Source: Candidatus Poseidoniaceae archaeon
GTDB lineage: Archaea > Thermoplasmatota > Poseidoniia > Poseidoniales > Poseidoniaceae
DNA length: 32,000 bases
Assembly: GCA_943789275.1 (NCBI GenBank)
Contig: CALSTM010000003.1
Location: 300,001-332,000 of the forward strand
Direction: 5' to 3'
Shown here: positions 5,872-32,000 of the stretch, in pieces
Layout of the letters: every line of letters begins with the position of its first letter
Numbering within the stretch: position 1 is the first letter of the stretch
Notes under the pieces: generated by a model
What the model was told of the DNA's origin: nothing
Databases searched by the model: none
The model's input: the letters and a program-made list of their open reading frames with translations, nothing else
Translations under genes and position numbers: made by a program

Positions 5872-7593
5872 GTGGTAAAAATCGCGATTTATGTGGATAC
5901 TTCCGGTTCAATGAATGAACGGATAAACGGGGAGATGGACGATAATTTTGCAAACGTCCGACCATCGATGTTTCGCAGTTTTATGCGGGCTGTTGGACTG
6001 GGCGGCAAAGTCAAAAAAAGTCGCGTTGCACAAGCCATGTGGGAAAACCTCGTTCCAACATTCAAAGACCACCAAACGAAGGTATCGACCATCAACAGCC
6101 GTGGACGTTCCAAGGTTCTGGCTCCGCTGGAATTTAGAAGCCATGCTGACTTGATGAAAATCGAGTTCCCAAACCCTTACGGAGGAACGTATCTTTGGGA
6201 ATTCTTAGTCGAAGAAGCCAGGGAACTCAGCAAAGACAGTGTGGACTGGTTGTTCTTCCTCATCAGCGACGGCATGGACATGAGCTCATCACCTCCCTTC
6301 AACGGCATCGATGGTTTTCAACCGTGTATAGAAGCAATCAAGGAAATCGGCATCGATGTCGAATTCCACATTATTGGGCTTGGTCTTCCCAGCGATTCAG
6401 TGAACGTCTTCCGTCAGGTCAGCGGTGCGAGCGGTGGTTCATTCGTGAACATCGAGGAAGCCGGCGATGATGTTGAACAAGCCATCGAAGAAGTCGGCGG
6501 AGCAGTCGAAGAATCCTTGAATCCAATCGCTCGTATGGCAAGCCGCCAACGTCGTCAACAGGAATACCTTGAATCGAGGCAGGAAGGCGATCTTGATATA
6601 ACGACAGAAACAACGCCCGTGTCTTCGTCCTATTCTGGATATACCTACGGTGAGACGGTCATCGAAGACACGAACCCCGAACAACTTTCTCAGTGGCAAA
6701 CCGACTTGGTGCGAATCCGCGGTGATGAGAAAATAGAGAACATACAAGCCTACGAAAATTGGGTTTCAATGCGCTCAACGCCGTTGTTTTCAGATACTCC
6801 GGGCATTCCAGTGGACTCCTGGGCGCTTTCTGCTGAAGATGTTTCCTTGATTGCAAGTATGAAAATCGACAATTTATTCACTTTCCTTTCACAGATACGT
6901 CGCTCTGACGTACCTATTGAGAACCGTCGAATCATTATTCGTGGCGAAAACATCCCCGATACATTGCTCGACACCCTTGCCAATTCCGGTGCACGAGTTG
7001 TGATTTACCCTGAGGAATTACCCCCTCCGCCTCCACCTGAGTTGGGCGATGAAAAATGGGAGCGCAACGAGTACGACTTCAACGACAACCCAACGCGCGG
7101 ATGGGAGATATACCCGCATCTAGGCCGCAGTAAGGCGCGCAGTGCGGTGGTAATTGACCCGCCGCTCTATCCTGAATACGTGGAAAAAATCACTCAAGCG
7201 TTCAGTCGGACCAACCTTGTGAACGATTTGCAAAGTAAAATCGGCCCAATTCAGCGCGCATACGCAGAAGCAGCGTTCAAACCCTCATGGCGTCATTTGA
7301 ACACGAATTGGGTTCCAGATGACTGGCCGTCGCTCCTTTCACACGACTCAAAGACCATCGGCGAAGCATTTTGTGAATCGTTACGGGTAACCTACATTCA
7401 AACCGTTCACGAATGGTTGTTCTCTCACGGTTCACGCCCGAAGTTCATTCTCGTTCGATTGTCCAATGAATCCAAGTCACTCGGCCTGCACAAGCACCCT
7501 TGTTACCTCGAATTCCAATCGCTGCTTGCGGATATGTTCCACTATCAGGGAACGGACCTTCGAATCAAGAAGCCTCGCGTCGAATACTGGTGA
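5872..7593 (+). CDS. von Willebrand factor A (vWA) domain protein with a large uncharacterised C-terminal region
   Basis: MIDAS-like residues are present: VDTSGSM (DxSxS) at aa 8-14, then GGTYLW (Thr) and LISDGMD (Asp). GTG start with a GGGAGG SD-like sequence 8 nt upstream. No signal peptide. The roughly 350 C-terminal residues contain a poly-Pro run (LPPPPPPE) and no motif I recognise. Confidence 0.6.
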   Translation: MVKIAIYVDTSGSMNERINGEMDDNFANVRPSMFRSFMRAVGLGGKVKKSRVAQAMWENLVPTFKDHQTKVSTINSRGRSKVLAPLEFRSHADLMKIEFPNPYGGTYLWEFLVEEARELSKDSVDWLFFLISDGMDMSSSPPFNGIDGFQPCIEAIKEIGIDVEFHIIGLGLPSDSVNVFRQVSGASGGSFVNIEEAGDDVEQAIEEVGGAVEESLNPIARMASRQRRQQEYLESRQEGDLDITTETTPVSSSYSGYTYGETVIEDTNPEQLSQWQTDLVRIRGDEKIENIQAYENWVSMRSTPLFSDTPGIPVDSWALSAEDVSLIASMKIDNLFTFLSQIRRSDVPIENRRIIIRGENIPDTLLDTLANSGARVVIYPEELPPPPPPELGDEKWERNEYDFNDNPTRGWEIYPHLGRSKARSAVVIDPPLYPEYVEKITQAFSRTNLVNDLQSKIGPIQRAYAEAAFKPSWRHLNTNWVPDDWPSLLSHDSKTIGEAFCESLRVTYIQTVHEWLFSHGSRPKFILVRLSNESKSLGLHKHPCYLEFQSLLADMFHYQGTDLRIKKPRVEYW

Positions 7594-7887: not shown

Positions 7888-7939
7888 AACACACCGATGA
7901 AGCAAGGTATCAAAAGTTATGCATTTTTGGGTAGAAATA

Positions 7940-10696: not shown

Positions 10697-10721
10697 GTAT
10701 TGATACGTGAGAGGTTTTCTG

Positions 10722-11174
10722 ATGCCTGAAATTTTTCCTTCGGTAACGGGGAGAAATCTCAATAAAAAAACGCTCACTATTCCAGATGATTACAACAGCG
10801 AACCGCTTCTTGTTATTGCTGCGTTCGAACAATGGCAACAGCGTGTCGTGGATGAAGTAATTTCCGCCTTTGAAGCAAACAATCTTGGGCAAAACCATAC
10901 CATCATTGAGATTCCAGTGATTCAACGGTCGACGCGGTTTCGTCAAATTCGGCTTGACGCCATCATGCGGGCCGTTATCCGGGACCGTGACATACGTCAA
11001 AGGACGGTTACCGTCTACCTTGACAAGAAGGCATTTCGTGACAGCTTAGAGATTCCAAACGATTCTGCAGTCCACTGGTTCTTGGTTGACCATGCCAGTA
11101 AGAAAATACGTATGCGTGGGATAAACGTGCCCTCTTCCGAAGAATTGCGCCAACTCGTTTCCCTTTCTTCGTGA
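10722..11174 (+). CDS. Hypothetical protein; possibly ATP10-like/thioredoxin-fold (from memory only)
   Basis: The layout FPSVTGRNLNKKTLTIPDDY..PLLVIAAFEQW......IIEIPVIQ....R.....LEIPNDSAVHWFLVDHASKKIRMRGINVPSSEELRQLV resembles what I remember of the ATP10 family (FP.l.g..L.g... / yLVD..gkIRWag.G.a..eE...L). It lacks redox cysteines. ATG 10722 is preferred over GTG 10707. Confidence 0.4.
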   Translation: MPEIFPSVTGRNLNKKTLTIPDDYNSEPLLVIAAFEQWQQRVVDEVISAFEANNLGQNHTIIEIPVIQRSTRFRQIRLDAIMRAVIRDRDIRQRTVTVYLDKKAFRDSLEIPNDSAVHWFLVDHASKKIRMRGINVPSSEELRQLVSLSS

Positions 11175-11293
11175 TGGACAGAACTTCAATCCGATAGCCC
11201 ACGGTTCGAGCATTTCACCTGTATCGAATGCTCCCCGGGCCTTTCTTTTCACATGGCCGATGGATTCATGTGTATGTTCAATCACCTTTGGTC

Positions 11294-11770
11294 ATGCAAC
11301 GGGTTTTTTCGTTGATTTGCGTCTTGTTTTTTCTTGCAGGCTGCCTTGGCGCTTCCTCAACCGGCTGCGGTGAAGGCTACGAAGAAATGCATGCTGGCGA
11401 CTATTCGATTGATTCCATCACTCTTGATGCTACGACAAATCAACTCAGTGTAGTGGTTAAGAATGAAGAAGGGGCATCAGGTTTCATTCGAGAGAATGAA
11501 TCGTTAGAGCAAGAACAAACCATTTGGATAGCTTTGCATATTCAGCATAATGGCCAGACCACTTCCATTCGAGGTGAAGATTCTGAACATTCTTGGACCG
11601 TAACTGGAGATTCAAGTAACGGTGATTCATGGATCAGTACGGTGACATTCACGAGCCCAGATGGATTTTGCGATTCAGGTTGCGAGGAAATCAGATTTTC
11701 CGCGGGTTATTACGATGGAGTATTCTATCACGACGGAACGTGCGAGAGTTCTCCATGGTTTGCGGTCTAG
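11294..11770 (+). CDS. Putative secreted/lipobox protein
   Basis: MQRVFSLICVLFFLAGCLGASS has a hydrophobic leader ending in the lipobox-like LAGC. The mature part has paired Cys residues. No homology was recognised. The ORF-track start 11228 adds 22 aa upstream of the leader. Confidence 0.5.
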   Translation: MQRVFSLICVLFFLAGCLGASSTGCGEGYEEMHAGDYSIDSITLDATTNQLSVVVKNEEGASGFIRENESLEQEQTIWIALHIQHNGQTTSIRGEDSEHSWTVTGDSSNGDSWISTVTFTSPDGFCDSGCEEIRFSAGYYDGVFYHDGTCESSPWFAV

Positions 11771-12004
11771 GTTCCACTTACCCCTTTCTCGATTTCAATC
11801 AAGTCTACTCGAATCGTGAATGAAAAAAAATTTCCACGAGGGCTCCCCTTGCACACGTCCGTATCTACGTCGGTACCCATGTACATGTATACGAACATAA
11901 GGGGGTCCCATGTATATGATTACAGAATACAAACAGATCGCCACCTCATTCCGATAAAACTGCTTTTTGCTGTAACTTTGCAATAACTTCATTTGCGTAC
12001 TGGA

Positions 12005-13095
12005 ATGCCTCAATCTATGACGAACCGTATTCTCGGGTTGGACGGAATCCGAGCTTACGCAGTAATCACCGTGGTAATTCTTCACTTACAATTGGTTATC
12101 CATTGGTATTACGAATCTTCTCCGTTATACAGTCTAGTGTGGCACGGAGTAGAGATTTTCTTTGTGCTATCTGGGTTTTTAATTACCCATCTTCTGGTTA
12201 AAGAGAGGAGTCAATTCGGGAACATAAACCTGAAAAAATTCTGGGTTCGCAGAGCACTTCGGATATTCCCTTTGTTCTATTTGTTCATTTTAAGCGTTAT
12301 ATTAATCGGGTTTTTCTACGATACAAATACATCTCTAAAGCAAACTTTGATATCGGCAATTTATGGATTTAATTTCGTTTCACGTAGCGAATACAACATT
12401 ATGTTGGGACACACATGGTCACTTGCTGTAGAGGAGCATTTCTATCTGATATGGCCGCCAATACTTATTTTGATGTTGAAAAAAAATGTATCTTTGCAGA
12501 AAATTTTGGTCATACTTGTTCTAAGTTTCGTAGCATTAGAACTAATAAACAATCACCTAATGTACGAGACTGAAATCGGCTCTGAATATTTTGTTGAGAG
12601 GTGGACTACGAGTGCGTCTGTTTACTTGCTTGCAGGTTGTATAGGTGGCATTTTTATTCACGCCGAAATATGGAAAAATACTTTTGGAACTCTGAAACTA
12701 AACTCCTTACTTACAACGCTATTCCTTTTCGGTTTTTTTGTTGATTTCTGGTTTTTCGCCATCCAATTATTGTAAGGGATTTTCGAATAATTGGTATTAT
12801 ATCGGGAATTTTATGGGTTGTTGCCAACCAAAAATCACTCCTCGTCAAAATTATGGAATGGGCTCCGATAAGATACATTGGACAGGTGTCTTATGGAATC
12901 TACATTTGGCAAGGATTCTATTTAGCAACTGGGCCATCAAGGGCAAAAGGTCAGGAATGGCCTTTGTCCGATCCTCTGCTTAGCGTTATATTTCTCGTTA
13001 TCACCGTCCCAATTTCATATCACCTTTATGAAAAAATATTTTTGAACATGAAGAAGAAGTTTCAGAGAGTTCCAATGGTAAATGAAAGTGAATAA
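12005..13095 (+). pseudogene. Acyltransferase family 3 (OafA/YrhL-like O-acyltransferase) interrupted by a frameshift near 12733-12756
   Basis: The N-terminal part (frame 2) carries ILGLDGIRAYAVITVVILH, WHGVEIFFVLSGFLI and HTWSLAVEEHFYLIWP. The C-terminal part (frame 1, open from 12745) reads ...IIGIISGILWVVANQKSLLVKIMEWAPIRYIGQVSYGIYIWQGF, the conserved family-3 C-terminal block. The two frames overlap at T7 (12733-12739) and T5 (12752-12756) homopolymers. Sampled 60-nt lines give about 28-40% GC. Confidence 0.7.
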
Positions 13096-18506: not shown

Positions 18507-19595
18507 GTGGCCCACATGAGCGACGACCATTCAGTTCGGACAGCATCTCTTGAAGCACGTTTGTCCTCGGTTGAAATGGACATTGACGACGACGACGAGG
18601 ATGTCGTATTGGTCTCCGTTGATATGACCAATGAGGCAGCAATACCTCTTGGTGGCCTTGACATTCACATCATCACAAGCAACGGTCAAAAAGTGGAATC
18701 GCAGTCTGGCATCTCCTCTTTAGGGCCAGGCCTCACACGTAATTTCACGTTTGAGTTCCCGCTGGAAAACGGCACGTGGTCATTCAGCGTTTCTGGCGGT
18801 GGCCAATCGCTTTCACTCGGACCTTACGAAGCAGGGTTTACCTTTGTTGCAGAACAAGGCCGTGCTTTTGGTAACTCCATTGGCTCAAGCCTTTTCAGCG
18901 GTGCTTTCAATACGCATTTGGATTCGTTTGGAAACGTCGATGAGCGTGAGATTATCGATCCCAGCCAGATGGTTATGACCTCGTACACCGGGGAAAATGC
19001 GGCAGGCGGTTCGACCAAAATCATCGTCGACGACGCTCAAGACAGCACGGATGAAGAAGACGCACCTCGAATTCCTCCTTGGCAACAAAACAAACCCGAA
19101 GCATCGGCTGCACCCCCCTCAAGTGACCTTCTCCTCCAAGCAGCAGCAGCAACTCCTGCGGCACCAACCCCTCCAACTGCCCCAGCAACAGGTGACCTCC
19201 TCCTTCAAGCAGCAGAGATTCACAGCCCTCCACCCCTCGAGCTTGAAACGGTTCAAGAAGAGCCGGAAGCCGAATCGGTTCAGCCGATGACGGCCTCCAC
19301 GCCCCCGACCTTGCCACCAGGTCCTTCAGGCCCACCTTCTGGTCCGCCATCCGGCCCTCCAAGCGGCCCACCTTCCGGCCCTCCAAGCGGCCCACCTTCC
19401 GGCCCACCAAGCGGCCCACCGTCCGGTCCACCGTCCGGTCCGCCATCCGGCCCTCCAAGCGGCCCACCTTCCGGTCCACCATCCGGTCCGCCATCCGGCC
19501 TCCAAGCGGCCCACCCGGTCCACCGTCCGGTCCACCGTCCGGTCCACCGTCCGGTCCGCCATCCGGTCCTCCAAGCGGTCCACCTGCTGAATTGA
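18507..19595 (+). CDS. Hypothetical protein with a C-terminal (GPPS)n repeat; the frame breaks inside the repeat and the likely true end is 19621
   Basis: The N-terminal ~190 aa has no motif I recognise. A Pro/Ala-rich region is followed by GPPS repeats. After about 19500 the annotated frame reads LQAAHPVHRPVHRPV, whereas frame 2 continues GPPSGPPS...GPPAELKPSRPEGL and stops at 19619-19621. Confidence 0.55.
   Translation: MAHMSDDHSVRTASLEARLSSVEMDIDDDDEDVVLVSVDMTNEAAIPLGGLDIHIITSNGQKVESQSGISSLGPGLTRNFTFEFPLENGTWSFSVSGGGQSLSLGPYEAGFTFVAEQGRAFGNSIGSSLFSGAFNTHLDSFGNVDEREIIDPSQMVMTSYTGENAAGGSTKIIVDDAQDSTDEEDAPRIPPWQQNKPEASAAPPSSDLLLQAAAATPAAPTPPTAPATGDLLLQAAEIHSPPPLELETVQEEPEAESVQPMTASTPPTLPPGPSGPPSGPPSGPPSGPPSGPPSGPPSGPPSGPPSGPPSGPPSGPPSGPPSGPPSGPPSGLQAAHPVHRPVHRPVHRPVRHPVLQAVHLLN
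19320..19588 (+). repeat. 12-nt tandem repeat GGN CCN CCN WSN encoding (Gly-Pro-Pro-Ser), about 22 units by my count
   Basis: Read directly from the sequence, for example ggccctccaagc ggcccaccttcc ggtccaccgtcc ggtccgccatcc. Units differ mainly at synonymous positions. One unit lacks a C (19499-19501, GGCC-TCC instead of GGCCCTCC) and one lacks the Ser codon. Confidence 0.85.
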
Positions 19596-19630
19596 AACCC
19601 TCTCGACCTGAAGGCTTGTGAAGTGAGCTT

Positions 19631-19903
19631 ATGGGTGACGGATTCGCAATGGAATTGTGCGGGAATAAGGCTGCATGGCAGATTGTCCCCGAAGGGATCA
19701 CCTCAATCAATCTTGAACGGGTAGGGCAGATTATACAAGAATCGGGATATTCGGTTGGAATCCAAAATCGGCTGTGTTGGACGTTCTCAGGGCCGTGCGA
19801 CCTTACTTTGTATCCAAGCGGAAAACTTCTGGTCAAAACAGAAGATAAGGAATTAGCGACTCTTGTGGCAGAACAGCACATCTCCACATGGGCGCATGCA
19901 TGA
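19631..19903 (+). CDS. Small hypothetical protein (90 aa), possibly a TBP-like/RNase HIII-N-like half-domain
   Basis: CDLTLYPSGKLLVKTEDKELATLV resembles the strand-turn-strand-helix motif (..lY.SGKll.qG..a..) of TBP-fold domains. It is tightly packed between the repeat protein and the yrdC-like gene. The assignment is weak. Confidence 0.4.
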   Translation: MGDGFAMELCGNKAAWQIVPEGITSINLERVGQIIQESGYSVGIQNRLCWTFSGPCDLTLYPSGKLLVKTEDKELATLVAEQHISTWAHA

Positions 19904-19913
19904 GGTGAGTGAA

Positions 19914-20522
19914 ATGGGCGAGATACCCATCCCCATCATCGATATTCTCCGGACGAACGGCGTTGTAGCCTATCCGACTTCGACCCTTCCAGGGTTAGCG
20001 ACTTTACCGACTTCCGAAGCACTTGACCGCCTTTTTGCTCTCAAACAGCGTCGTTCGGACCAACCGGTTAGCCTTGGTGTTGCGTCGCTTGAACAAGCTG
20101 AGTTGCTTGTCGAAGTTCCCGCTTTCGCTTATCGCTTACTCGAAGGCTTTGACCGGGGTGCATTGACGCTCATTCTTGATGCCCATGCTCCGCTCGATGC
20201 TCGATTGGGTGGAAGTCGTGTGGCGGTACGGGTGTTTGCGCACCCGACTGCCATTGCTTTAGCAGAAACCGTTGGTCCCGTAACAGCTACCAGTGCAAAC
20301 GTGGCCGGCATAGCACCATTGGATGAAGCATATGCTGCTGGAAGGGAACTTGGTCTCCAATCCTCAGCGATATTACCCGGTAAATGCCCAGGGGGCAACG
20401 GTAGCACTTTGGTATCCGTCGTCAAATCGCCGGAAAAGCCGTCTGGTTTTTCGGTAAGCATTATGAGAGAGGGCGTAATACCTACAAATGACGTGGACGC
20501 ATGGATGTCGAAGAATCACTGA
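19914..20522 (+). CDS. tsaC: L-threonylcarbamoyladenylate synthase, YrdC/TsaC type (no Sua5 C-terminal domain)
   Basis: GVVAYPTSTLPGLA (PTdT.yGL), LKQRRSDQPVSL (K.R...kP), GALTLIL, VAVRVFAHP and TATSANVAG (SAN.sG). ATG 19914 is preferred because the earlier ORF-track start overlaps the previous ORF. Confidence 0.8.
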   Translation: MGEIPIPIIDILRTNGVVAYPTSTLPGLATLPTSEALDRLFALKQRRSDQPVSLGVASLEQAELLVEVPAFAYRLLEGFDRGALTLILDAHAPLDARLGGSRVAVRVFAHPTAIALAETVGPVTATSANVAGIAPLDEAYAAGRELGLQSSAILPGKCPGGNGSTLVSVVKSPEKPSGFSVSIMREGVIPTNDVDAWMSKNH

Positions 20523-22460: not shown

Positions 22461-22529
22461 CGTGCTTCAATGAAGCACGAGAGCCGCCCCTCTGCAGACT
22501 TCGGCCTGCAGGGGGGCCTTTTTTTTTTT
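22461..22529 (+). terminator. Two consecutive hairpins followed by T11; also abuts the stop of the convergent GT2 gene
   Basis: CGTGCTTC-AAT-GAAGCACG (22461-22479), then CCCCTCTGCAG...CTGCAGGGGGG (22487-22516), followed by the T-run at 22519-22529. Confidence 0.6.
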
Positions 22530-23748
22530 AATTCAAATCTGAGTCAGAGAGTGCAATGCGCGTATCGCTGTGCTGTTCCCACATGTGAAGCGACTTTCCT
22601 CTTAGAGAGTATAAGTGCCCAATCATCAAATGCTCCATTCCGGAAAACACACTTCCAACGGCTTCCAAACCAGGTACGCGAATACCTTGTCTGTTGAGTA
22701 ACCAAGCCACTAAGCATGTCAATTCAACACAGGCAAGACTTCCGTGCAATGCTGCGAGTGTTCCATTCGGCATTCCTGCCACAGTAATGATGCCCCACCG
22801 AAGTACGGCGGCCATCCCAGCTCCAAACAGCATCAATGGAGCAATCAAGTGAAAATGAGCCTCTCGGCGTAATATGCTTGCAAATGTTCCAAGACGCTTG
22901 TCAAACCAAGACTTTCGGTGACTCATAAGAAGCCGTTGAAGCCCTTGTCCACGGCGAATTTTTTGTCGGCGTTGCCCTTCCGGAGTGGTAGGTGCCATAT
23001 CTTCAAAGTGAACGTTTGAGTCGTACAGGCTTCTGAAACCATTGAGCCTTACTCCAGTGGCAATCTGAGCATCGTCTGCGTTTGACTGCGTATTGAGCTG
23101 ACTCGAATTGAATGATGTACGTTTCCACATCATGCATGACCCTTCAAGGAAAGGCGTTGAATCACGAGCAGATTCCCCTTCTCGTAGCAATTCAAACATC
23201 GTTCTGTGTGAACGTTCGCTGGAAAGGCCCCCATGCCGGAGGGCACGAGCACCAACCGCCCCGATGCTCGGGTCTGCAAACCACCCTTGCAGCCGCTTCA
23301 GTGCATCAGGGGGGAGCAATGCATCAGCATCCGTCATGCAAATGCAACCGCTAAAATCGTCCTTCTCAAGCCTTACAATTGCTTGGCGAACGGCCTCTGT
23401 TTTACCTAACCTTTCCTTCATCGTGAGGAGAGTAAAATCATCGAAGGCCTTAGGGTGCGATTGAATCCATGCATTGACTTTGCTTACCGTTTCATCGGTT
23501 GAAGCCGAATCAATGACGAGAAGTGAACACCGAAGGTTTTGTTGAGCAAGGTTGTCAAGTTTCTTTTCGATAATCAGCCCCTCATTCCAGACAGGAAGCA
23601 ACACCGTCACGGCCGGTAAGTCTGCATTGTTCACAGGATATTCGATTCCCTGCTTACGCCATTTCCCAACCGAGAGCCGGTGGACCAGAAACGGTGCAAA
23701 GGCTGCCAGCCCAAGGCCAACTTCAACCAAGGCAGGAATCCACACCAT
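22528..23748 (-). CDS. Glycosyltransferase family 2 with a C-terminal membrane domain (processive-type features)
   Basis: VTVLLPVWNEGLIIEKKL, LLVIDSASTDET and MTDADALLPPDAL (DxD), plus EGQRRQKIRRGQG, which resembles the Q(R/Q)xRW region. Hydrophobic helices occur at both ends. Confidence 0.8.
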   Translation of the reverse strand: MVWIPALVEVGLGLAAFAPFLVHRLSVGKWRKQGIEYPVNNADLPAVTVLLPVWNEGLIIEKKLDNLAQQNLRCSLLVIDSASTDETVSKVNAWIQSHPKAFDDFTLLTMKERLGKTEAVRQAIVRLEKDDFSGCICMTDADALLPPDALKRLQGWFADPSIGAVGARALRHGGLSSERSHRTMFELLREGESARDSTPFLEGSCMMWKRTSFNSSQLNTQSNADDAQIATGVRLNGFRSLYDSNVHFEDMAPTTPEGQRRQKIRRGQGLQRLLMSHRKSWFDKRLGTFASILRREAHFHLIAPLMLFGAGMAAVLRWGIITVAGMPNGTLAALHGSLACVELTCLVAWLLNRQGIRVPGLEAVGSVFSGMEHLMIGHLYSLRGKSLHMWEQHSDTRIALSDSDLN

Positions 23749-23853: not shown

Positions 23854-24834
23854 ATGCCAAAGGTGCTTCACATTGGACCGTGTGAGTCGCCAGGAGGCAT
23901 GGCGAACGTGATGCGTATCCTTGCTGAACATCCGCCGGAAGGTTGGGATGCCGAACTTCTCTCGTCGCATGTTGAAGGTTCGCCTTGGGCCAAATGGCGA
24001 GCGTATCGCCGCGCACGAGCGACCCTCGCCCAAATGCTCCGTGACGACACCCGCCGACCCGACATTGTTCATCTTCATACTGCAGCAGATTGGTCGTGGT
24101 GGCGCAAACGTCGATTTGCTCAGATGGCGCATAAAGCAGGTGTTCCGAACATTGTCCACATCCATTCTGGGCAATTCGATACGTGGCTTGGAGGTCCTGA
24201 ATCCCGCCGCTGTAAGCGATTTAGACATACAATCAATGAACTAGGTGCGACGGTTGTTGCCCTCAGCGACTCTTGGAAGGAACAATTCACGAAGTTGATC
24301 GGACCTACTACAGCGATTTCGAACCCTATTGATATTAATCTTAGCCCAAGTAATGTTTCGAGAGACAGGGACCATTTGCTCCTTTTAGGTCGTAATGATC
24401 CGGTGAAAAACCACACGAGGGCCATCGAAATCGCAACCAAGTTGCACCTTCAACGTCCAAATCTAATGCTGTCCATGACTGGAGTTGAAAAATCAACAAT
24501 ACCGTTTGTCAAAGCGCTTGGTTGGGTCAGCGAAGAACGTAAGCTCCATCTTCTCCAAACCGCAAGCCTGCTGCTTTTACCATCATCTCATGAAGGCCAA
24601 CCAATGGTCGCTTTGGAAGCGAATGCCTGTGGTTTGCCAGTTGTGGCCTCAGACCATTTGTCCTCCTTACCCCCGTCGACGTTTTTTGCGGGACCTGAAA
24701 TTGAGGACTGGGTTTCGACCATCAACGATCTTCTTGAGCACCCTCCGTCTATCAAGTCACAAGATCCATCAGCTCATCTTGAATCAGTTCAAGAGTCATG
24801 GAAGACCTGTTATTCTGTTGTACTTGTTGAGTGA
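23854..24834 (+). CDS. Glycosyltransferase family 4 (GT-B, Glycos_transf_1)
   Basis: LLLPSSHEGQPMVALEANACGLPVVASD is the E-x7-E retaining GT4 signature. The N-terminus MPKVLHIGPCESPGGMANV is typical of the Glyco_trans_4 N-domain. Confidence 0.8.
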   Translation: MPKVLHIGPCESPGGMANVMRILAEHPPEGWDAELLSSHVEGSPWAKWRAYRRARATLAQMLRDDTRRPDIVHLHTAADWSWWRKRRFAQMAHKAGVPNIVHIHSGQFDTWLGGPESRRCKRFRHTINELGATVVALSDSWKEQFTKLIGPTTAISNPIDINLSPSNVSRDRDHLLLLGRNDPVKNHTRAIEIATKLHLQRPNLMLSMTGVEKSTIPFVKALGWVSEERKLHLLQTASLLLLPSSHEGQPMVALEANACGLPVVASDHLSSLPPSTFFAGPEIEDWVSTINDLLEHPPSIKSQDPSAHLESVQESWKTCYSVVLVE

Positions 24835-25922
24835 AGGACCAGCTCAAGTGAGTCGACACCCTTGCCCCATGAACAATGGTTTTCCGCATAAGTGCGCGCA
24901 GAATGGCAGGATTTTTCCGCCTCAATCTCGGTTAAGGTGCTCAACCACTCAATCGCTCTTTCATGAAAATCTTCAATGGCAGACAGACGAAACCAATCTT
25001 CACTGGTATATTCTAATCGATGCCCGGCATGATCAATGCCGTACACCATCAGTCCAGATGCAAGGTACTCACTTCGTTTGAGGGGGCTTGCTATGGACCA
25101 AACGGGAGTTTCGGGCATCGGGAGCAAGCCAATATGATGTGATTCTAAGAGTGTTGAAATCTTCGTAATGGGTTGGCTTGGTAAGATTGTGATTGAATCT
25201 TCGTTTGCAGCAATTCGGCTGAGAGCCTCGAAGGCATCACCCTTTCCGACGAGGGTTAATTGCACCTGAATACCATGATTAAGCAATTTCCGAATCAGCA
25301 TTGGAAGGGCTAAAACGCCTCTATGTTTGTCTAATCGACCATGGTAGATCATTTTCCATGTGCCATCGAAGGTCTTGTTTTTGGAAGAAAAAAGTTCGAG
25401 ATTTACGCCGGCTGGAACTGCATCGATCAAATTGCTATTGACTGAACATCGCCGTTGTACGAACTCTTTGTGAGCTGTAGACACCACCACCCCACGTTGA
25501 ATGATGCCTCGGTTCACGAGGTTCCACGCTTTACGCCAAACCCTCCATTGGAGTTTACCAAGTAATGAGGCATCAGCAGGCGGTGAACGGTCCATCAAAA
25601 TCATCTTGTGACTCTGTTTTGTCAGTTCACCAGCAACGCCTGGAGCAAGTGGCCAATCGACAATAACCGCATCAAAGGTTTGGTTTTGGTTTTCCTGAAA
25701 CCAACGGGACGCGTTTCGGGCAAGGGAGGCACCTTTTCGCCCAGGAAGAGAAGATTGATCTAAGGCAATGTGATTCCATGGTAATTGAGCATGTGCTTCG
25801 GTTACATCGCCATTGAGGATAGTAAGTTCGTGACCCCGTTTGATTAAACCATTGGCTAACGCATTCGTTGTGGTGGAACAAAAGTCCGCCCACCTTCGTA
25901 CGGTTATCCATGCTATATTCAC
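24810..25922 (-). CDS. Glycosyltransferase family 4, WbuB/WcaI-like
   Basis: MNIAWITVRRW start, YHGRLDKHRGVLAL, and IGLLPMPETPVWSIASPLKRSEYLASGLMVYG, resembling the ..vsP.K..EYlAaGkPv. block of WbuB/WcaI-type enzymes. The start overlaps the epimerase stop by 4 nt, suggesting an operon. Confidence 0.7.
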   Translation of the reverse strand: MNIAWITVRRWADFCSTTTNALANGLIKRGHELTILNGDVTEAHAQLPWNHIALDQSSLPGRKGASLARNASRWFQENQNQTFDAVIVDWPLAPGVAGELTKQSHKMILMDRSPPADASLLGKLQWRVWRKAWNLVNRGIIQRGVVVSTAHKEFVQRRCSVNSNLIDAVPAGVNLELFSSKNKTFDGTWKMIYHGRLDKHRGVLALPMLIRKLLNHGIQVQLTLVGKGDAFEALSRIAANEDSITILPSQPITKISTLLESHHIGLLPMPETPVWSIASPLKRSEYLASGLMVYGIDHAGHRLEYTSEDWFRLSAIEDFHERAIEWLSTLTEIEAEKSCHSARTYAENHCSWGKGVDSLELVLHSTSTTE

Positions 25923-26887
25923 GTAGAATCGCTCCTCTTTTGGTGTTCAATAAGTGCACTGAGTCCTTCCTCTAAGCCAACTTGAGGTTGCCATTCAATG
26001 ATCGACTGTAATCTCAAACTTGATCCAACGGAGTGCATGATGTCGCCCGGTCTTGCAACGGAATAGTTCGGCTCTATGCTTGGCAATTCGTGGCATGTAA
26101 CCAAATGATGATTGATTGCTTCGAAGATATCGAGCACGCTTGTTTGGGTTTGCGTTGCTACGTTTGCAACAGGAAACGAAAACGGTTTAGAAAGGCTGGC
26201 AAGCTTAACAATCGCATGTGTGAGATCTTCAACATGAATGAAATCTCGAGTCTGCATTCCATCGCCAAAGATTGTGGGGCGTTGACGTTGAATCAGGTGG
26301 CCAATGAACAATGGAATCAACGAAGAATAACCAGATGAAACCGACTGACCCGGTCCATAGACATTGAAAAATCGCAAGGCAATCGCATTCAAACCTTGGT
26401 TGCGAGCGGTTGTTATATCCTTTTCATTGATGATTTTACTCTCTCCATAAGGCGACAGTGATTCCAGTGCATTCGCCTCAATAATGGGCAAAACCCCTTG
26501 CTCACCATAGACTGCTGCGCTTGAAGCGAAAATCGCATGAGCTAGACCGAGTCGTTGAGCAGCAGCAAGAACATTCTGAGTTCCTCCAACATTGATGTCC
26601 ATTGTTTTGTCAGGGTTTTCAATCGATTCTGAAACTGAGACAACCGCCGCAAGGTGAACCACTGCATCACAGCCCTCCATCGCGAGGCCAACCGCTTGCT
26701 CATCTCTAACATCACCGATGTGAACAATGCACCTAGATGCTAGGAATGGGTCATCCTCCTCAATTGGTGCGCAATCCAAGATGCTTACATCCCAACCCTG
26801 TTCAACGAAACGGCGAGCACAATGGCGTCCAATGAAACCCGCACCACCCGTGATGAGGACCTTGGCCATGGTTCGTGGTCGGTGCAC
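25919..26887 (-). CDS. NAD-dependent sugar-nucleotide epimerase (extended SDR, UDP-Glc/GlcNAc 4-epimerase-like)
   Basis: VLITGGAGFIGRH (Rossmann GxxGxxG), SSAAVYG, SPYGESK (YxxxK catalytic pair), LRFFNVYGPGQ and FGDGMQTRDFIHVEDL. Confidence 0.85.
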   Translation of the reverse strand: MHRPRTMAKVLITGGAGFIGRHCARRFVEQGWDVSILDCAPIEEDDPFLASRCIVHIGDVRDEQAVGLAMEGCDAVVHLAAVVSVSESIENPDKTMDINVGGTQNVLAAAQRLGLAHAIFASSAAVYGEQGVLPIIEANALESLSPYGESKIINEKDITTARNQGLNAIALRFFNVYGPGQSVSSGYSSLIPLFIGHLIQRQRPTIFGDGMQTRDFIHVEDLTHAIVKLASLSKPFSFPVANVATQTQTSVLDIFEAINHHLVTCHELPSIEPNYSVARPGDIMHSVGSSLRLQSIIEWQPQVGLEEGLSALIEHQKRSDST

Positions 26888-26950: not shown

Positions 26951-28333
26951 ATGTACGAACGAGGAGAGACTGCCATGCTCATCAGTGCGATACAAAGATG
27001 GCGAATCCGTCGACTCTACAACGCTGGTGAATGGAAAAACGCCCATGATTTAGCTGAAAAGGAATTAGGCAGAAAAAATCATCATTTCGCAACCGATATC
27101 ATTGTTCGTTCCATGTACAATCTATCTCGGTGGGAAGAGGTGATTGCCTTTGCAAAAAAACATCCTGAAGCGGATACAAACGGGTATGTGTACAAATCTC
27201 ATCAAAGAGTTTCCGAAAGAATTGAAGCAGCAGAGGGGTTGCCAAAGCCGATTTCCACTCAAGTGTGGAATGAAGTCGACCTACTCGAAAATTGGGTTCA
27301 AGAGGGGTCGCGGTTGTGGCTTAAGCATCCCTGGGGATGGGTACATTGGGACATGCCAAACGGATTTGAGTTGAGCAAGACACATCCCGCTTTGTTGCAT
27401 CTCGCCTTGGAAGTTCTGTTGTCGCCTTGGGTAAAGAAAACCAAGAAATGGAACGTTGAGAGAAGGCAACCAGGAAAGCATCACTCACTCTCTTATTCCG
27501 GAGGTATCGATTCTACTGCAGCCCTACTTTTGATGCCAGATGATACAATACTTGCATACCATGAACGAAATTTCACCTCGATGCTTAATCATTCATTGCC
27601 ACATTCGACGTTTGCAGCGATTCAAGAACGTACGAATCGAAAAGTGCTCTGCATTCCCTCAAATCATGAAAAAATACGAACTCATCACAAGTTGCAAACT
27701 GGTTTTTCGACGGCAAATGCTTCAGCAGTACATCTGATTTTACTTGCCGATTACCTCGACCTTTCCTCCATTGCTTTTGGAACACCAATTGACAACACCT
27801 GGTTGGAGAAAGGTGCAAAATACCGACATTTCCCTTCTTCATTCTACTGGACCTATTGGAGTGAGAAGTTCAAATTAGCAGGGTTGACTTATCTGTTACC
27901 AATGAACCATATTTCTGAAGCGGGAGCCCTCTCGGTCTGTAAGCAAAGCAAGCTTAGTGATGTTGTGAACTCGTGTTTGCGAGGCTATGACGGGCGTTGG
28001 TGCGGTCGATGTTGGAAATGTTTCCACAAAAACGGCCCTCTCGGGAGAGATTTTGACCCGTACAGCAAAGAGGTGACAACCTTCCTCAATGCCCCACATC
28101 TACGTACTGCACAACACGCATTGTGGGCGTTGAAGGTGCAGGACTTGGAACATTTGGCACCCCACCTCAAGCCTCACATTGCCAAGAACTTGGATTGGTG
28201 GACACAGGCTTATCCTGCAGGATTAGAATTAGTCGATGAGCCATTGCGTAGTCATATCCGTTCGCGTACCGAAAACTATCTCGAATGGATGGAAGAACCA
28301 TTTACCCTCGAGACAATCGATTTGGATGTCTAG
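26951..28333 (+). CDS. PP-loop ATP pyrophosphatase with a QueC-like zinc motif, paralog A (helical/TPR-like N-terminal extension)
   Basis: SGGIDS PP-loop at 27497-27514 (LSYSGGIDSTAALLLMP). Tetra-Cys motif SCLRGYDGRWCGRCWKC at 27974-28021, i.e. C-x8-C-x2-C-x2-C. It is collinear with the protein at 29707-31002. The start is uncertain (26951, 26975 or 26897); the ORF-track start 26822 overlaps the divergent epimerase. Confidence 0.6.
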   Translation: MYERGETAMLISAIQRWRIRRLYNAGEWKNAHDLAEKELGRKNHHFATDIIVRSMYNLSRWEEVIAFAKKHPEADTNGYVYKSHQRVSERIEAAEGLPKPISTQVWNEVDLLENWVQEGSRLWLKHPWGWVHWDMPNGFELSKTHPALLHLALEVLLSPWVKKTKKWNVERRQPGKHHSLSYSGGIDSTAALLLMPDDTILAYHERNFTSMLNHSLPHSTFAAIQERTNRKVLCIPSNHEKIRTHHKLQTGFSTANASAVHLILLADYLDLSSIAFGTPIDNTWLEKGAKYRHFPSSFYWTYWSEKFKLAGLTYLLPMNHISEAGALSVCKQSKLSDVVNSCLRGYDGRWCGRCWKCFHKNGPLGRDFDPYSKEVTTFLNAPHLRTAQHALWALKVQDLEHLAPHLKPHIAKNLDWWTQAYPAGLELVDEPLRSHIRSRTENYLEWMEEPFTLETIDLDV

Positions 28334-28406
28334 CCCGGTTGATAATGAAAAGAAATAGGCAGACTCATTTGCCAAACCTCAAGAAGTTGAGCGCAGAGGG
28401 ATTGCC

Positions 28407-29738
28407 ATGGATGATGAGACCACACCGGCTGAATCATCTGCTGCTGAGGGCGTAATTTCTACCCATCAGGCCTATGATTCGTTGAAAAAAAAGCATTCGA
28501 GAAGCCAGCGTGAAGTACGACGGCTAAGGGCTTCCGTTTCGTTCCAATTAGGTCTACACATCACAACCGCAGCCCGACAAATTTGGCGTTTGCCCTTTCT
28601 TCCCATCTCACTTCCACTGCTTGCTGTGAAACTGGGATTGCAACGATTAGGCCATCGTCCAATTGAAGATTCTCTTTCTATTGAACAGTCCGTTCATATC
28701 GAGCGTGAACATTGCATTGTACTGTTTCCTACCAACGGCGTTGGTTTTGGACACTTTACCAGAATGTATGCCGTCGCTCGAGCGTTACGAAAAGCAGATC
28801 CATCGCTCGAAATCGTTTTTTTTACCCCAATGCCTACTTTACACATTCTGTACAGCGAAGAATTTCCAACTTACCATTTGGCAGGACGGTATAAGCATGC
28901 AAACATGAGTGCGACTCAATGGAACGGGTTGGTTGAGGACATGCTTCACATGGTGTTTGACATGCACCGACCAAAATGGTTCATGTTTGATGGTGCTTTT
29001 CCTTACCGTGGTATGTTGAATGCCATTGCTTCACAACCTCACATGGACAAGTGGTGGATGCGTCGTGGATCACTGAAGAAGAACAAATCAATTCCAGTGG
29101 ATAGCCAATCCTTTTTTGACGGAGTTATTGTACCAAGTGAAGGCGAAGAAACTGAAGCCGAGGAGGGGGTTCATGTTGTCGCTCCAATCAAAGCGATTGA
29201 ATTCGATGAAGCATGGGATCGAACTTTTGCTCGCTCCCGACTTTCAATTCCTGACGATGGAAAGGCGGTCTATGTTCAACTCGGAGCTGGAAGAATTAAT
29301 GACATCGAAGGGCTTCTTGACAAAGTGCTTCATTCATTGTTTGACCATCCCGAGGTGTATGTCGTTTTAGGAGAATCAATGTTGGGTGAACGCCTGAATT
29401 TCACCCATGAGCGTTTGCGGGTGGTTCGAGATTATCCGAATGCGTTGTATGCCCTTGCTTTCGATGCATCTGTCCAGGCGGGTGGTTACAATTCATATCA
29501 AGAAATGCGGATGTTTGGTATACCCACGCTTTTCATCCCCAATATGGACACAGGTATGGACGATCAAGTTGCTCGTTGTAAGATTGCAGAAGAAGAGGGC
29601 TGGGGAACGGTATATTTGCCAGTAGAGGGGAGTATTGAGGACAAAATCACTGAACTTCTCAAGATGACTGCGATTCCAATTCCGAGTCAGAACGGCGCCC
29701 ATTCAATCATGGATTTGCTGGATATTGGTTCGACATGA
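28407..29738 (+). CDS. GT-B fold glycosyltransferase, MurG/PseG (GT28)-like, with a ~95-aa N-terminal extension
   Basis: CIVLFPTNGVGFGHFTRMYAVARALRK (the G.GH..R motif of MurG/PseG-type enzymes) and C-terminal QAGGYNSYQEMRMFGIPTLFIPN (..G..t..E....g.P.i.iP). The N-terminus has a basic segment followed by a hydrophobic one (LPFLPISLPLLAVKLGL). Confidence 0.5.
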   Translation: MDDETTPAESSAAEGVISTHQAYDSLKKKHSRSQREVRRLRASVSFQLGLHITTAARQIWRLPFLPISLPLLAVKLGLQRLGHRPIEDSLSIEQSVHIEREHCIVLFPTNGVGFGHFTRMYAVARALRKADPSLEIVFFTPMPTLHILYSEEFPTYHLAGRYKHANMSATQWNGLVEDMLHMVFDMHRPKWFMFDGAFPYRGMLNAIASQPHMDKWWMRRGSLKKNKSIPVDSQSFFDGVIVPSEGEETEAEEGVHVVAPIKAIEFDEAWDRTFARSRLSIPDDGKAVYVQLGAGRINDIEGLLDKVLHSLFDHPEVYVVLGESMLGERLNFTHERLRVVRDYPNALYALAFDASVQAGGYNSYQEMRMFGIPTLFIPNMDTGMDDQVARCKIAEEEGWGTVYLPVEGSIEDKITELLKMTAIPIPSQNGAHSIMDLLDIGST

Positions 29739-31002
29739 ATGTGTCAAATCTGTTCTTTGCATGAATTGCCGCATCCGTTTCTAGCCACGGCGCCATGGTG
29801 TGTGAAGTGATTTCAGGCCAGAAACGTTCTTCCATTGGCCTCAAAAATTGTTCCAACTTTGATTTTGTTGTCAAGCGATGCTGTTCAGGCATTAGTTCAA
29901 ATGCGGCAGGGTAAAATGTCTCAAGAAAAGCGAGGTTGCGCTGATTTCCCTCTAAGCGTTGTAAAACTATTTGTGAAGTGCTTCCAGTGCTTTTTCCGAG
30001 AGCCCACGCCAGTACATTTTCATGACTTACAGGGTATGATTGCATTTTCTTTTGAACTTCAGGAATGCCTAGACCTTGAAGTAAATATGCATCATTAATC
30101 TCCTTTCCTTTTATTCTTGCTTCAAGCATATTTTTTCGGAAGCATTTCCAACAATTTTCACACGCTTCGGGCCACTCTCCTCGAATACATGATCTGGTAA
30201 ATGGGTGAAAAGAGGAATTTAACACGATGGTACTTGTACCAACCTCACTTACCCCTGAAACTGGTAAATAGAGCGGTAAACCAGCGGCTAGAAACATCCG
30301 CCCCCAAAACCGATAGTGGTGAGATGATGCATAGTCCCTCGCCTTCTCATGTCCAATTCGATATGCAGATTCCATGACTGTTCCAAACGCAATGGAATCA
30401 ATATTATGACTGGATGCAAGTGCGATAATAGGAATCGAAGGAACAAGGTCAGTTGGAAATCCAAGAGGTTGCCGAACATACTCGACATCACACTCGAGGG
30501 CATGGACCTCAAATCCACACTTTTTGGCATGTTTGATGGTCGCGTAAGCCGCAGATTTGTTATACATAGAAACTTTCTTTTTCAATGGCCGGTCCATGAA
30601 TACGGACAATGTATTTTCTGGCATCACTAGGAGACTCGCAGTTGAGTCTGCTCCACCAGAAAAAGCAAGTGCTGGCCGAGCATTCGGAGATGGGATATAT
30701 GATTTATATCCGATTTCATCAAAAACAACATTATATTTTGAAATCTTGGCGCAAGACTCAGCAAATCGAGTACTCACATTCCAAGGAATAGTGACTGAAT
30801 CTTCAACAAAGGGATGGCACACTAACAAAGCTATAAGAGCAAGATGATCGGGGTGGATTTGTTCAATTGTGACTCCTCTGGGCAACTCATTCGAGAACTT
30901 CCTGCCAATCATTGAGATCTTATCGGTGTATTTGCCATCATTTTTATCTAAGGTAAATGTCCAATGCAGGGTGCTGCGTATTCCAACCACATCCACCTTC
31001 AT
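29707..31002 (-). CDS. PP-loop ATP pyrophosphatase with a QueC-like zinc motif, paralog B
   Basis: SGGADS PP-loop at 30643-30660 (LAFSGGADSTASLLVMP). Tetra-Cys motif SCIRGEWPEACENCWKC at 30142-30189 (C-x8-C-x2-C-x2-C). Shared blocks with paralog A: HPDHLALIALLVCHPFV/HPALLHLALEVLLSPWV, DSIAFGT/SSIAFGT, AAGLPLYLPV/LAGLTYLLPM, FYPAAFELMPE/AYPAGLELVDE. Confidence 0.6.
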   Translation of the reverse strand: MKVDVVGIRSTLHWTFTLDKNDGKYTDKISMIGRKFSNELPRGVTIEQIHPDHLALIALLVCHPFVEDSVTIPWNVSTRFAESCAKISKYNVVFDEIGYKSYIPSPNARPALAFSGGADSTASLLVMPENTLSVFMDRPLKKKVSMYNKSAAYATIKHAKKCGFEVHALECDVEYVRQPLGFPTDLVPSIPIIALASSHNIDSIAFGTVMESAYRIGHEKARDYASSHHYRFWGRMFLAAGLPLYLPVSGVSEVGTSTIVLNSSFHPFTRSCIRGEWPEACENCWKCFRKNMLEARIKGKEINDAYLLQGLGIPEVQKKMQSYPVSHENVLAWALGKSTGSTSQIVLQRLEGNQRNLAFLETFYPAAFELMPEQHRLTTKSKLEQFLRPMEERFWPEITSHTMAPWLETDAAIHAKNRFDTFMSNQYPANP

Positions 31003-31087: not shown

Positions 31088-32000
31088 ATGCCTCATATGA
31101 TTCATATCGTTGTTGGCGCTCGACCTAATCAGATGAAGGCTGCGCCAATTCTGAGAGCGCTCCGAGAGCACCCAGATTTCGAACCAATACTCGTCGATAC
31201 AGGACAGCATTACGACCATGAAATGGCAGGTGTTTTTATGCAACAATTCGGCATGGGCGAGCCGGATTATTCTCTTGAAGTTGGGAGTGGTACTCATGGT
31301 GCCCAAACTGCAAAAATTCTCGAGAAATACGAATCATTATTACTAGAAAAGCGACCTACTGCGACTATTGTTATTGGTGACATCAACAGTACAGTTGCTT
31401 GTGCTCTTGCAGCATCAAAAATAGGAATCCCAGTCATTCACCTTGAAGCAGGATTACGAAGCAAAGATCGAGGCATGCCAGAAGAATTGAATCGAATTGT
31501 GACTGACCATCTCTCGGATTTACTCTGGACTCCGTCTCCTGACGGAGATAAAAACCTTCTAAAATCTGGTATTGAAGGCTCTAAAATTGTCCGAGTAGGC
31601 AACATTATGATTGATACTTTAGTCGCAATGAAGCCTGAAATTGAACAATCTCCTTTCACCAACAACATCCCCTTTCAAAACAACACATTTGCTATAGTCA
31701 CTTTACACCGGCCGAGCAATGTCGATGTTGAAGTAACGCTTACTAAATTACTGGATGAATTATTGATTGTATCGGAGACTATGGATCTTATTTGGCCGCT
31801 TCATCCACGTACAAGATCAAGAATTGAATCACTGGGGAGAATGAATGAACTCCTCGATAGCGCCTCGATTCATATCATGGGCCCTCTTGGATATATTGAT
31901 TTCATGAATGGAATCATGCATTCTGCATGTGTCATCACTGATAGCGGTGGCATCCAAGAAGAGACGACCTGGCTTGGCGTGCCATGCATCACATTACGAC
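31088..32000 (+). CDS. wecB: UDP-N-acetylglucosamine 2-epimerase (non-hydrolysing, WecB-type); the 3' end is beyond the window
   Basis: Manual translation: M(PHM)IHIVVGARPNQMKAAPILRAL...DTGQHYD...VIGDINSTVACALAASKIGIPVIHLEAGLRSKDRGMPEELNRIVTDHLSDLL...VTLHRPSNVD...WPLHPRTR...VITDSGGIQEETTWLGVPCITLR. All canonical WecB blocks are present. It is absent from the ORF track because it is edge-truncated. Confidence 0.85.
   Translation, partial: MPHMIHIVVGARPNQMKAAPILRALREHPDFEPILVDTGQHYDHEMAGVFMQQFGMGEPDYSLEVGSGTHGAQTAKILEKYESLLLEKRPTATIVIGDINSTVACALAASKIGIPVIHLEAGLRSKDRGMPEELNRIVTDHLSDLLWTPSPDGDKNLLKSGIEGSKIVRVGNIMIDTLVAMKPEIEQSPFTNNIPFQNNTFAIVTLHRPSNVDVEVTLTKLLDELLIVSETMDLIWPLHPRTRSRIESLGRMNELLDSASIHIMGPLGYIDFMNGIMHSACVITDSGGIQEETTWLGVPCITLR

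Follow-up and report, generated by a model that had tools for sequence, protein, structure and literature searches.

We describe a probable glycan-tailoring module in the genome of a Candidatus Poseidoniaceae archaeon, encoded within a 32,000-nucleotide stretch of contig CALSTM010000003.1 (assembly GCA_943789275.1, positions 300,001 to 332,000; this whole stretch is referred to as the window). The module consists of a conserved gene of the Pfam family DUF6395 and a dedicated partner gene for a PseG/MurG-like protein of the GT-B glycosyltransferase fold, and in the window a diverged second DUF6395 copy has been added to this pair. We refer to the added copy as paralog A and to the other as paralog B; the coordinates of all genes and motifs are collected in Table 1. 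In archaea and bacteria alike, the GT-B gene and genes of polysaccharide synthesis are found in linkage with DUF6395. To our knowledge, it has not been described before that DUF6395 is a PP-loop, QueC-like family, that it has a GT-B partner, that it occurs in archaea as well as bacteria and that it is fused to polymerases of the glycosaminoglycan type.

Paralog B was found as an open reading frame (ORF) with exactly the boundaries and strand of the initial annotation. For paralog A the annotated end at 28333 was borne out, and the annotated start at 26951 is an in-frame ATG, one of two alternative starts (the other at 26822). The start is nevertheless likelier to be 26975, because the closest homologs are 452 amino acids (aa) long and begin MLISAI, in agreement with the N-terminal alignment, and with this start A no longer overlaps the divergent epimerase gene. 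Each protein carries an SGGxDS PP-loop and a downstream C-x8-C-x2-C-x2-C cluster, as had been noted, with 159 residues from the first PP-loop serine to the first cysteine in A and 157 in B. The two are true paralogs, again as first claimed, with 27% identity over ~360 residues (E 2e-34). In a 33-sequence alignment covering both subfamilies no variation occurs at the four cysteines or at the PP-loop positions S, G, D and S, and when bacterial and fused members are added (44 sequences) three cysteines stay invariant, the fourth is at least 90% conserved and SGGxDS is invariant or nearly so. A chance occurrence of the motifs is rejected because of the paralogy E-value combined with this conservation across both alignments. 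Beyond the motifs, both proteins have an HPxxLxL region near the N-terminus and a helical domain of roughly 140 aa at the C-terminus, conserved extra domains that agree with the earlier description of proteins about twice the length of QueC with common additional blocks at either end; an N-terminal extension of ~125 aa is present in A and absent from B. Homologs number 428 for A (the closest being those of 452 aa) and 646 for B, and the B-type is the subfamily that in bacteria too adjoins the GT-B gene.

Both proteins belong to PF19932 (DUF6395), with 68.6 bits for A and 136.6 bits for B against a Pfam cutoff of 25, so that the module called undescribed in the initial annotation involves a family which is indeed uncharacterised but already catalogued. 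The DUF6395 match in B extends over residues 233-392 (window 29827-30306), which comprise the Cys motif and the C-terminal helical domain only, and the PP-loop half of B is matched by no Pfam model; for this reason domain-based annotation would miss the likely ATP-pyrophosphatase nature of the family. An NCBIfam scan of A and B at E up to 1 gave no match, and sequence searches of the PDB with B and with two family profiles returned only sub-threshold PP-loop and Zn-motif fragments. The AlphaFold2 (AF2) model of B is confident (predicted local distance difference test score, pLDDT, 93.7; predicted template modelling score, pTM, 0.92), and its best Foldseek matches in the PDB are TilS, TrmU/MnmA, LarE, YcfA, argininosuccinate synthase and GMP synthase, all of them PP-loop enzymes, at probabilities up to 1.0 but with a best E of only 2.8e-3. 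Aligned by hhalign to single E. coli proteins, the family matches ArgG (P 2e-5), NadE and TilS at the PP-loop only, over 15-31 columns. A and B thus carry the PP-loop ATP-pyrophosphatase motif and, as predicted by the model, its Rossmann-like alpha/beta/alpha fold. No paper found in a literature search mentions DUF6395; searches on PP-loop uronic-acid amidotransferases, QueC-like glycosyltransferases and AglU/threonine yielded nothing relevant, and those on amide-linked GlcA ligases and Poseidoniales uronic acids nothing on DUF6395.

The cysteine spacing points to QueC in particular. The zinc-site spacing given for QueC in the initial annotation proved correct on the E. coli sequence, whose cluster, TCYNGFKGDGCGHCAAC, reads C-x8-C-x2-C-x2-C, identical in spacing to A and B. 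When all 44 alignment members were scanned against the whole of Pfam at E up to 1, 21 of them matched QueC (best E 0.0014) and one matched ATP_bind_3, and no other PP-loop family was hit. By hhalign, DUF6395 aligns to a QueC profile made from 10 sequences, E. coli and viral QueCs, colinearly from SGGxDS to the Cys cluster over 176 columns (P 1.3e-4, probability 53%); the single E. coli QueC aligned at the Cys motif only (QueC residues 183-217). The Pfam QueC model (PF06508) likewise meets B at the Cys motif only, residues 268-290 falling on model positions 179-202, with 12.5 bits against a cutoff of 22 (E 0.1), and does not match A; the NCBIfam QueC models match neither. On the sequence evidence of the Pfam scans, the QueC-profile alignment and the single-protein comparisons, A and B fall within the PP-loop superfamily, carry a Cys knuckle of the QueC type and are related to QueC remotely, not as orthologs. 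The QueC-like architecture first proposed therefore stands as regards the colinear PP-loop and Cys cluster, and is to be read as a distant relationship.

The gene between A and B was initially annotated as a MurG/PseG-like GT-B transferase, and this assignment holds as regards fold and resemblance; the protein may be a transferase or a hydrolase. Its product was assigned no family in the Pfam scan of the window and found nothing in a PDB profile search, but its AF2 model (pLDDT 77) has the two-Rossmann-domain GT-B fold and gave 371 PDB matches in Foldseek at E up to 1e-3, the best being GT1-type transferases at E ~1e-11. Weak NCBIfam matches point to PseG (TIGR03590, 14.1 bits against a cutoff of 153.6), MurG (TIGR01133, 10.8 against 250.3) and MJ1255, and among its 1447 homologs some are named SpsG or MurG by JGI. 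The protein resembles PseG/SpsG, MurG (family GT28) and the MJ1255 family in its GT-B fold, in the N-terminal Gly-rich G-x-G-H-x-x-R loop, and in these weak hidden Markov model (HMM) matches; it differs from them in falling far below their equivalog cutoffs and, in its archaeal form, in an N-terminal helical extension of ~80 aa, seen in the window protein as helices at aa 19-81 ahead of the GT-B core. One bacterial homolog, from Halobacillus litoralis (L057:7541-9880), matches Glyco_tran_28_C and is fused to an N-terminal S-adenosylmethionine (SAM) methyltransferase domain; this fusion gene sits in a cluster with an ATP-binding cassette (ABC) exporter, GT4 glycosyltransferase genes and a dehydrogenase.

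A full HMMER scan for DUF6395 yielded 775 clusters at 50% identity. A distribution scan at one genome per species returned 78 loci. Most are from Poseidoniales, the archaeal sources being named Poseidoniales, Poseidoniaceae or Poseidonia; the others are from Paenibacillus, Cohnella, Halobacillus litoralis, Helicobacter valdiviensis, Bacillus, Lysinibacillus and Bacillota, and from metagenome-assembled genomes (MAGs) of Deltaproteobacteria, Gammaproteobacteria, Myxococcales, Acidimicrobiia and Chloroflexi. Further homologs occur on a Priestia megaterium plasmid and in Nonomuraea. All loci were searched with the DUF6395 profile, the GT-B profile and seed sequences for other neighbour genes. Of the DUF6395 genes, 35 have 5 kb or more of sequence to either side; among these, a strong GT-B homolog lies within 5 kb in 30, a short-chain dehydrogenase/reductase (SDR) epimerase in 20, a second DUF6395 copy in 16, a nucleotide-sugar 6-dehydrogenase (TIGR03026) in 14, in some cases directly adjacent, and WecB and an ABC exporter ATPase in 11 each; 25 of the 35 have either the dehydrogenase or WecB. 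A-type genes are followed by the GT-B gene and then, in most loci with enough downstream sequence, by a second DUF6395 gene that is either B-type or fused to a family 2 glycosyltransferase (GT2). From the neighbourhood counts and the gene orders across loci, what is conserved as the core is therefore the pairing of a single DUF6395 gene with the GT-B gene, and the arrangement of A, the GT-B gene and a second DUF6395 copy is a Poseidoniales elaboration. Conservation of the paralog pair together with the GT-B gene, which the initial annotation had proposed to check, thus applies in archaea and bacteria to the DUF6395/GT-B linkage, and the flanking pair belongs to the Poseidoniales.

In the window the gene for B and the GT-B gene are convergent, with a 32-bp overlap of their 3′ ends (29707-29738); in Paenibacillus sp. 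P8 (L056:11172-11188) the overlap of the pair is 17 bp, and the same convergent, overlapping layout is present in Cohnella, other Paenibacillus and many archaeal loci. Genes so placed cannot be co-transcribed, yet the layout recurs in both archaea and bacteria. On the P. megaterium plasmid NZ_CP109861.1 (L101/L102; 59289-60781 joined to 1-4453) a dehydrogenase, two GT-B genes and DUF6395 follow one another in that order on one strand. On this 61-kb plasmid the module has GalU, a pyruvyl transferase and genes for spore coat proteins close by, and one of the GT-B copies, which runs across the origin of the record, is not listed in the PLSDB gene table. In the Paenibacillus and Cohnella loci (L056:4328-7460, 9082-9867) DUF6395 is immediately preceded by the gene for a NodB-type polysaccharide deacetylase, and there are also two AMP-binding PaaK-like ligases, one of which carries fused tetratricopeptide repeats (TPR); deacetylase and ligases were found in that clade only. 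Over 13 B-type and bacterial loci the commonest neighbours are GT1/GT4 transferases (12 proteins), the SDR epimerase (8), the 6-dehydrogenase (7), the ABC ATPase (7), an ABC-2 permease (6), GT2 (5) and TPR proteins (5), and no glutaminase or AsnB family is among them. Four short contigs (L021, L028, L042 and L046) binned as Verrucomicrobiales, Opitutia, Gammaproteobacteria and Enterobacteriaceae also carry A-type or fused genes, whose identity to the A-subfamily query (35-44%) lies where that of contigs labelled Poseidoniales does; the four contigs are probably mis-binned archaeal DNA.

Several features of the related loci bear on the substrate. The 6-dehydrogenases pass TIGR03026, and their best sub-threshold matches are UDP-N-acetylmannosamine (UDP-ManNAc) dehydrogenase and TviB, not UDP-glucose dehydrogenases. 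Loci with the short form of DUF6395 (360 aa) have the dehydrogenase adjacent or close, together with Wzm/Wzt-type ABC genes and a 1547-aa multi-GT2 protein, and KpsMT-like ABC exporters are common neighbours of the family. Furthermore, many members are fused to GT2 domains; on Poseidoniales-type metagenome contigs such fusions are 1100-1200 aa long, with the GT2 region first and DUF6395 at the C-terminus (Table 1). The N-termini of two of these, P0256 and P0250, were compared with the PDB: the first 540 residues of P0256 match the E. coli K4 chondroitin polymerase (PDB 2Z86) at E 2.4e-138, and P0250 matches the Pasteurella heparosan synthase (PDB 8VH7) at 6.9e-49 and KfiA (PDB 5Z8B) at 1.6e-16. 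Clear homologs of these polymerases are thus fusion partners of DUF6395 elsewhere, whereas in the window the DUF6395 genes stand alone without a fused polymerase. At the P0256 locus (L100), ABC exporter genes and a 6-dehydrogenase accompany another copy of DUF6395 and a GT-B homolog, and a protein of the alginate-lyase/heparinase II-III type is encoded there as well (L100:10913-13150). The combination of fusion, ABC exporter and dehydrogenase resembles bacterial group-2 capsule loci. Of the two relatives that are 93% identical to the window, one (L003) has another gene of the heparinase II/III or alginate-lyase type on the far side of WecB (L003:498-2837), and the other (L002) has none. Taken together, the dehydrogenases, ABC genes, GT2 polymerase fusions and lyases tie the DUF6395 domain to uronic-acid-containing, glycosaminoglycan-like polymers, and the homology of the fusions to chondroitin and heparosan synthases suggests that marine archaea make polymers of this type.

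Based on these observations we tentatively suggest, by analogy with the chemistry of QueC, NadE and AsnB-type enzymes, that DUF6395 proteins catalyse the ATP-dependent adenylation and subsequent amidation of a uronic-acid carboxylate. The enzyme would bind ATP at the SGGxDS loop and adenylate the carboxylate with release of pyrophosphate, the target being most likely C6 of a hexuronic or N-acetylhexosamine (HexNAc)-uronic acid unit, either on a UDP-sugar or on the nascent chain. Ammonia or another amine would then attack the acyl-adenylate to give an amide, that is, a uronamide or an aminoacyl-uronate, with the four-cysteine site playing a structural part and shaping the substrate pocket. The GT-B partner may install or accept the modified sugar at the membrane, and A and B may have different substrate specificities or act jointly. 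The chemistry would probably be that of QueC, which goes from carboxylate through acyl-adenylate to amide with free ammonia. No glutaminase was seen in the scanned neighbourhoods, as would be expected if ammonia or an amine were used directly, in the manner of QueC. AsnB carries an N-terminal glutaminase domain. Uronic acids are converted to uronamides via an ATP-dependent adenylate by the AsnB-type amidotransferases WbpS and WbqG (PMC7468200), and these, with PGN_1234, would share the reaction proposed for DUF6395. They are, however, asparagine-synthetase homologs, and neither A and B nor the 44 homologs contain an Asn_synthase or glutaminase Pfam domain; with an hhalign probability of 1.3% to E. 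coli AsnB in addition, an AsnB-type enzyme was rejected. It is most improbable that DUF6395 is a QueC-derived enzyme class which carries out the full two-step chemistry of QueC on a sugar, converting the uronate through the uronamide to a 6-nitrile on glycosaminoglycan-like polymers produced in planktonic archaea by the chondroitin- or heparosan-synthase homologs; paired copies (A with B, or a fusion with a stand-alone protein) would in that case divide the two ATP-dependent steps, and a nitrile-bearing glycan would be unprecedented.

A number of observations weigh against amidation of a uronate. No 6-dehydrogenase was found in the window or in its two 93%-identical relatives, with roughly 10 kb of flank on each side, and WecB is present instead; since WecB is there and no uronate-forming dehydrogenase was found, a ManNAc-uronate substrate is unproven for the window. 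Within the loci set the dehydrogenase and WecB never occur together within 5 kb, which would be odd if UDP-ManNAcA (the uronate of UDP-ManNAc) were the universal substrate. Dehydrogenases are in any case common in polysaccharide loci, and the figure of 14 in 35 is a raw count that may not exceed their usual frequency. The similarity to QueC is remote, as the hhalign probability of 53% indicates, and QueC is outside the Foldseek top 50 for the model of B, where TilS, MnmA and LarE come first. Finally, some distant bacterial members (Nonomuraea, L071, L074, L077 and L078) have no GT-B gene, and the Nonomuraea DUF6395 gene lies outside any glycan context. The sugar-carboxylate amidation put forward in the initial annotation draws indirect support from the dehydrogenases near related loci and from the polymerase fusions. 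The role of WecB may lie in a ManNAc linkage unit, or a HexNAc may be what the loci have in common; a Bacillus MAG also combines DUF6395 with WecB and GT4 genes.

The most serious competitor, which we regard as possible but doubtful, is another adenylation-dependent ligation tied to the GT-B protein, in which, for example, a non-sugar acid or an amino acid is joined to an amino sugar, or a lipid-linked primer or chain terminus is modified in an ABC-transporter-dependent pathway. No precursor gene is linked to DUF6395 as tightly as the GT-B gene, the neighbourhoods repeatedly contain ABC exporters and TPR proteins, the Halobacillus fusion of GT-B and SAM methyltransferase resembles chain-capping enzymes, and the Paenibacillus loci supply a NodB-type deacetylase and two AMP-binding ligases; yet the last of these are confined to one clade, and a PP-loop enzyme is without specific precedent in such roles. 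Rather less probable again is a reaction like that of the N-acetyl sugar amidotransferases (NASAT; WbuX, WbpG, LfnA and PseA; TIGR03573; PDB 8WEX), by which the N-acetyl carbonyl of a HexNAc such as the ManNAc from WecB would be adenylated and its oxygen replaced by ammonia to give an acetamidino sugar. The NASATs are glycan-tailoring PP-loop ATP pyrophosphatases of polysaccharide clusters with a Zn tetracysteine of the pattern CxxC...CxxC or CxxC-Xn-[GN]xCxxC (PMC10607449), so that PP-loop Zn(Cys)4 enzymes already perform such chemistry in glycan pathways; the earlier statement that WbuX/PseA-type enzymes lack this Cys signature is correct only in that their pattern differs from that of A and B. 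An N-acetylhexosamine is also a plausible common denominator of the WecB-type loci (the window, its Poseidoniaceae relatives and the Bacillus MAG) and the dehydrogenase-type loci, whose enzymes are closest to UDP-ManNAc and UDP-GlcNAc dehydrogenases, and a NASAT-like reaction keeps this low probability because WecB occurs without a dehydrogenase in the window. On the other side, A and B show no match to TIGR03573 at E up to 1, the pattern and position of their cysteines differ, PDB 8WEX is outside the Foldseek top 50 of B, and the partner is a GT-B protein and not the WbuY/WbuZ glutaminase/cyclase, no HisH/HisF-like homolog of which turned up in the window ORFs or when the neighbours were surveyed. 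Membership of the WbuX family itself was rejected on the missing TIGR03573 match and the differing Cys pattern.

Sulfur insertion of the LarE/TtuA/MnmA type, with the Cys cluster binding an Fe-S cluster and a thiocarboxylate or thio-sugar as product, appears very unlikely. Among the Foldseek matches, LarE with its [4Fe-4S] cluster (PDB 8CNZ) and MnmA/TrmU rank near the top, and four cysteines could ligate such a cluster, but their spacing fits the QueC zinc site and not the known Fe-S PP-loop motifs, and no sulfur-relay or cysteine desulfurase genes were among the scanned neighbours. We know of no thio-glycan of this kind. The least credible reading, to which we assign almost no weight, makes A and B genuine QueC-pathway enzymes of preQ0 or 7-deazapurine synthesis, or QueC-like defence proteins of the QatC/Dpd type. 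Like QueC (PDB 3BL5, 2PG3), A and B have the SGGxDS PP-loop followed ~160-180 residues downstream by cysteines of identical spacing, and the weak Pfam QueC matches speak for this reading as well; unlike QueC, they fall below every family threshold, are about twice as long with extra conserved N- and C-terminal regions, and reside in a context that is consistently one of polysaccharide synthesis. No que, folE, tgt or dpd gene is among the window ORFs scanned with Pfam or in the annotated related loci, as the initial annotation had noted for queD, queE, folE and tgt in the window. A true QueC function is effectively excluded by the sub-threshold scores, the length and the glycan context, and a QatC-type defence protein by the absence of any PADLOC match at E up to 0.1.

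Poseidoniales (Marine Group II) are among the most abundant archaea of the surface ocean and are uncultured. DUF6395, with its ~775 clusters and confident predicted fold, is an uncharacterised family of which some members sit in their surface-glycan islands, and as the DUF6395/GT-B pair is common to cultivable Bacillota (Paenibacillus, Halobacillus and the P. megaterium plasmid) its function is testable. Should uronate carboxylates indeed be amidated or capped by DUF6395, this would represent a third independent solution beside the AsnB-type WbpS and the ATP-grasp ligases, and would remove negative charges from the polymer.

Table 1. Positions of the module, its motifs and its glycan-island neighbours in the window, and of DUF6395 genes fused to GT2 regions at other loci (named by locus)
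Feature	Position	Strand	Basis or remark
Paralog A, DUF6395 PP-loop protein, 452 aa	26975-28333	+	ORF; Pfam PF19932
PP-loop of A, SGGIDS, aa 175-180	27497-27514	+	motif
Putative Zn site of A, C-x8-C-x2-C-x2-C, CLRGYDGRWCGRCWKC, aa 334-349	27974-28021	+	
GT-B-fold partner protein, 443 aa	28407-29738	+	AF2 model, Foldseek, weak NCBIfam matches
G-x-G-x-G-H-x-x-R loop of GT-B partner, GVGFGHFTR, aa 111-119	28737-28763		
Paralog B, DUF6395 PP-loop protein, 431 aa	29707-31002	-	ORF; Pfam PF19932
Cys cluster of B, C-x8-C-x2-C-x2-C, CIRGEWPEACENCWKC, aa 272-287	30142-30189	-	
PP-loop of B, SGGADS, aa 115-120	30643-30660	-	motif
WecB, non-hydrolysing UDP-GlcNAc 2-epimerase	31088-32000 (runs off window end)	+	divergent from B
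SDR nucleotide-sugar epimerase/dehydratase, GalE-like	25919-26887	-	divergent from A; Pfam Epimerase 1e-53
GT4-like	24810-25922	-	Pfam
GT4	23854-24834	+	Pfam
GT2	22528-23748	-	Pfam; PDB 6YV7 at 9e-36
GT2-DUF6395 fusion (P0256)	L100:2148-5459		
GT2-DUF6395 fusion (P0250)	L001:603-4220		
GT2-DUF6395 fusion	L018:10727-14404		
GT2-DUF6395 fusion	L039:11651-15280		
GT2-DUF6395 fusion	L041:5218-8823		

The neighbours listed in the initial annotation, WecB, the SDR epimerase and the GT2 and GT4 genes, were all recovered by Pfam and NCBIfam. WecB is supported by Pfam Epimerase_2 (4e-83) and by TIGR00236 (264 bits against a cutoff of 210), and the best NCBIfam matches of the SDR protein, GalE, LegB and TviC, are all under cutoff. 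In the 93%-identical relatives WecB (L002:8811-9906) and the SDR gene (L002:14167-15138; L003:13754-14723) are split into two or three ORFs, unlike in the window, where both frames are unbroken (WecB running off the end); the split genes resemble products of frameshift errors in long-read assemblies more than they do pseudogenes. The sole tRNA of the window, a tRNA-Arg (TCG) at 1993-2067, does not mark the edge of the glycan island, because it is ~20 kb away. Elsewhere in the window an archaeal pilin gene is present, which together with the source names of the homologs marks the DNA as archaeal, and a 925-aa ORF with thrombospondin type 3 repeats (7919-10696) probably encodes a surface protein; the ORFs at 5872-7593, 10707-11174 and 11228-11770 have no significant Pfam match. 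The GC content peaks at 0.59 in 19001-20000, at the opposite-strand overlap of two long ORFs, 18507-19595 (+), which has no Pfam match, and 19021-19887 (-), and it dips to 0.38 in 12001-13000 over an Acyl_transf_3 gene (11993-12775).

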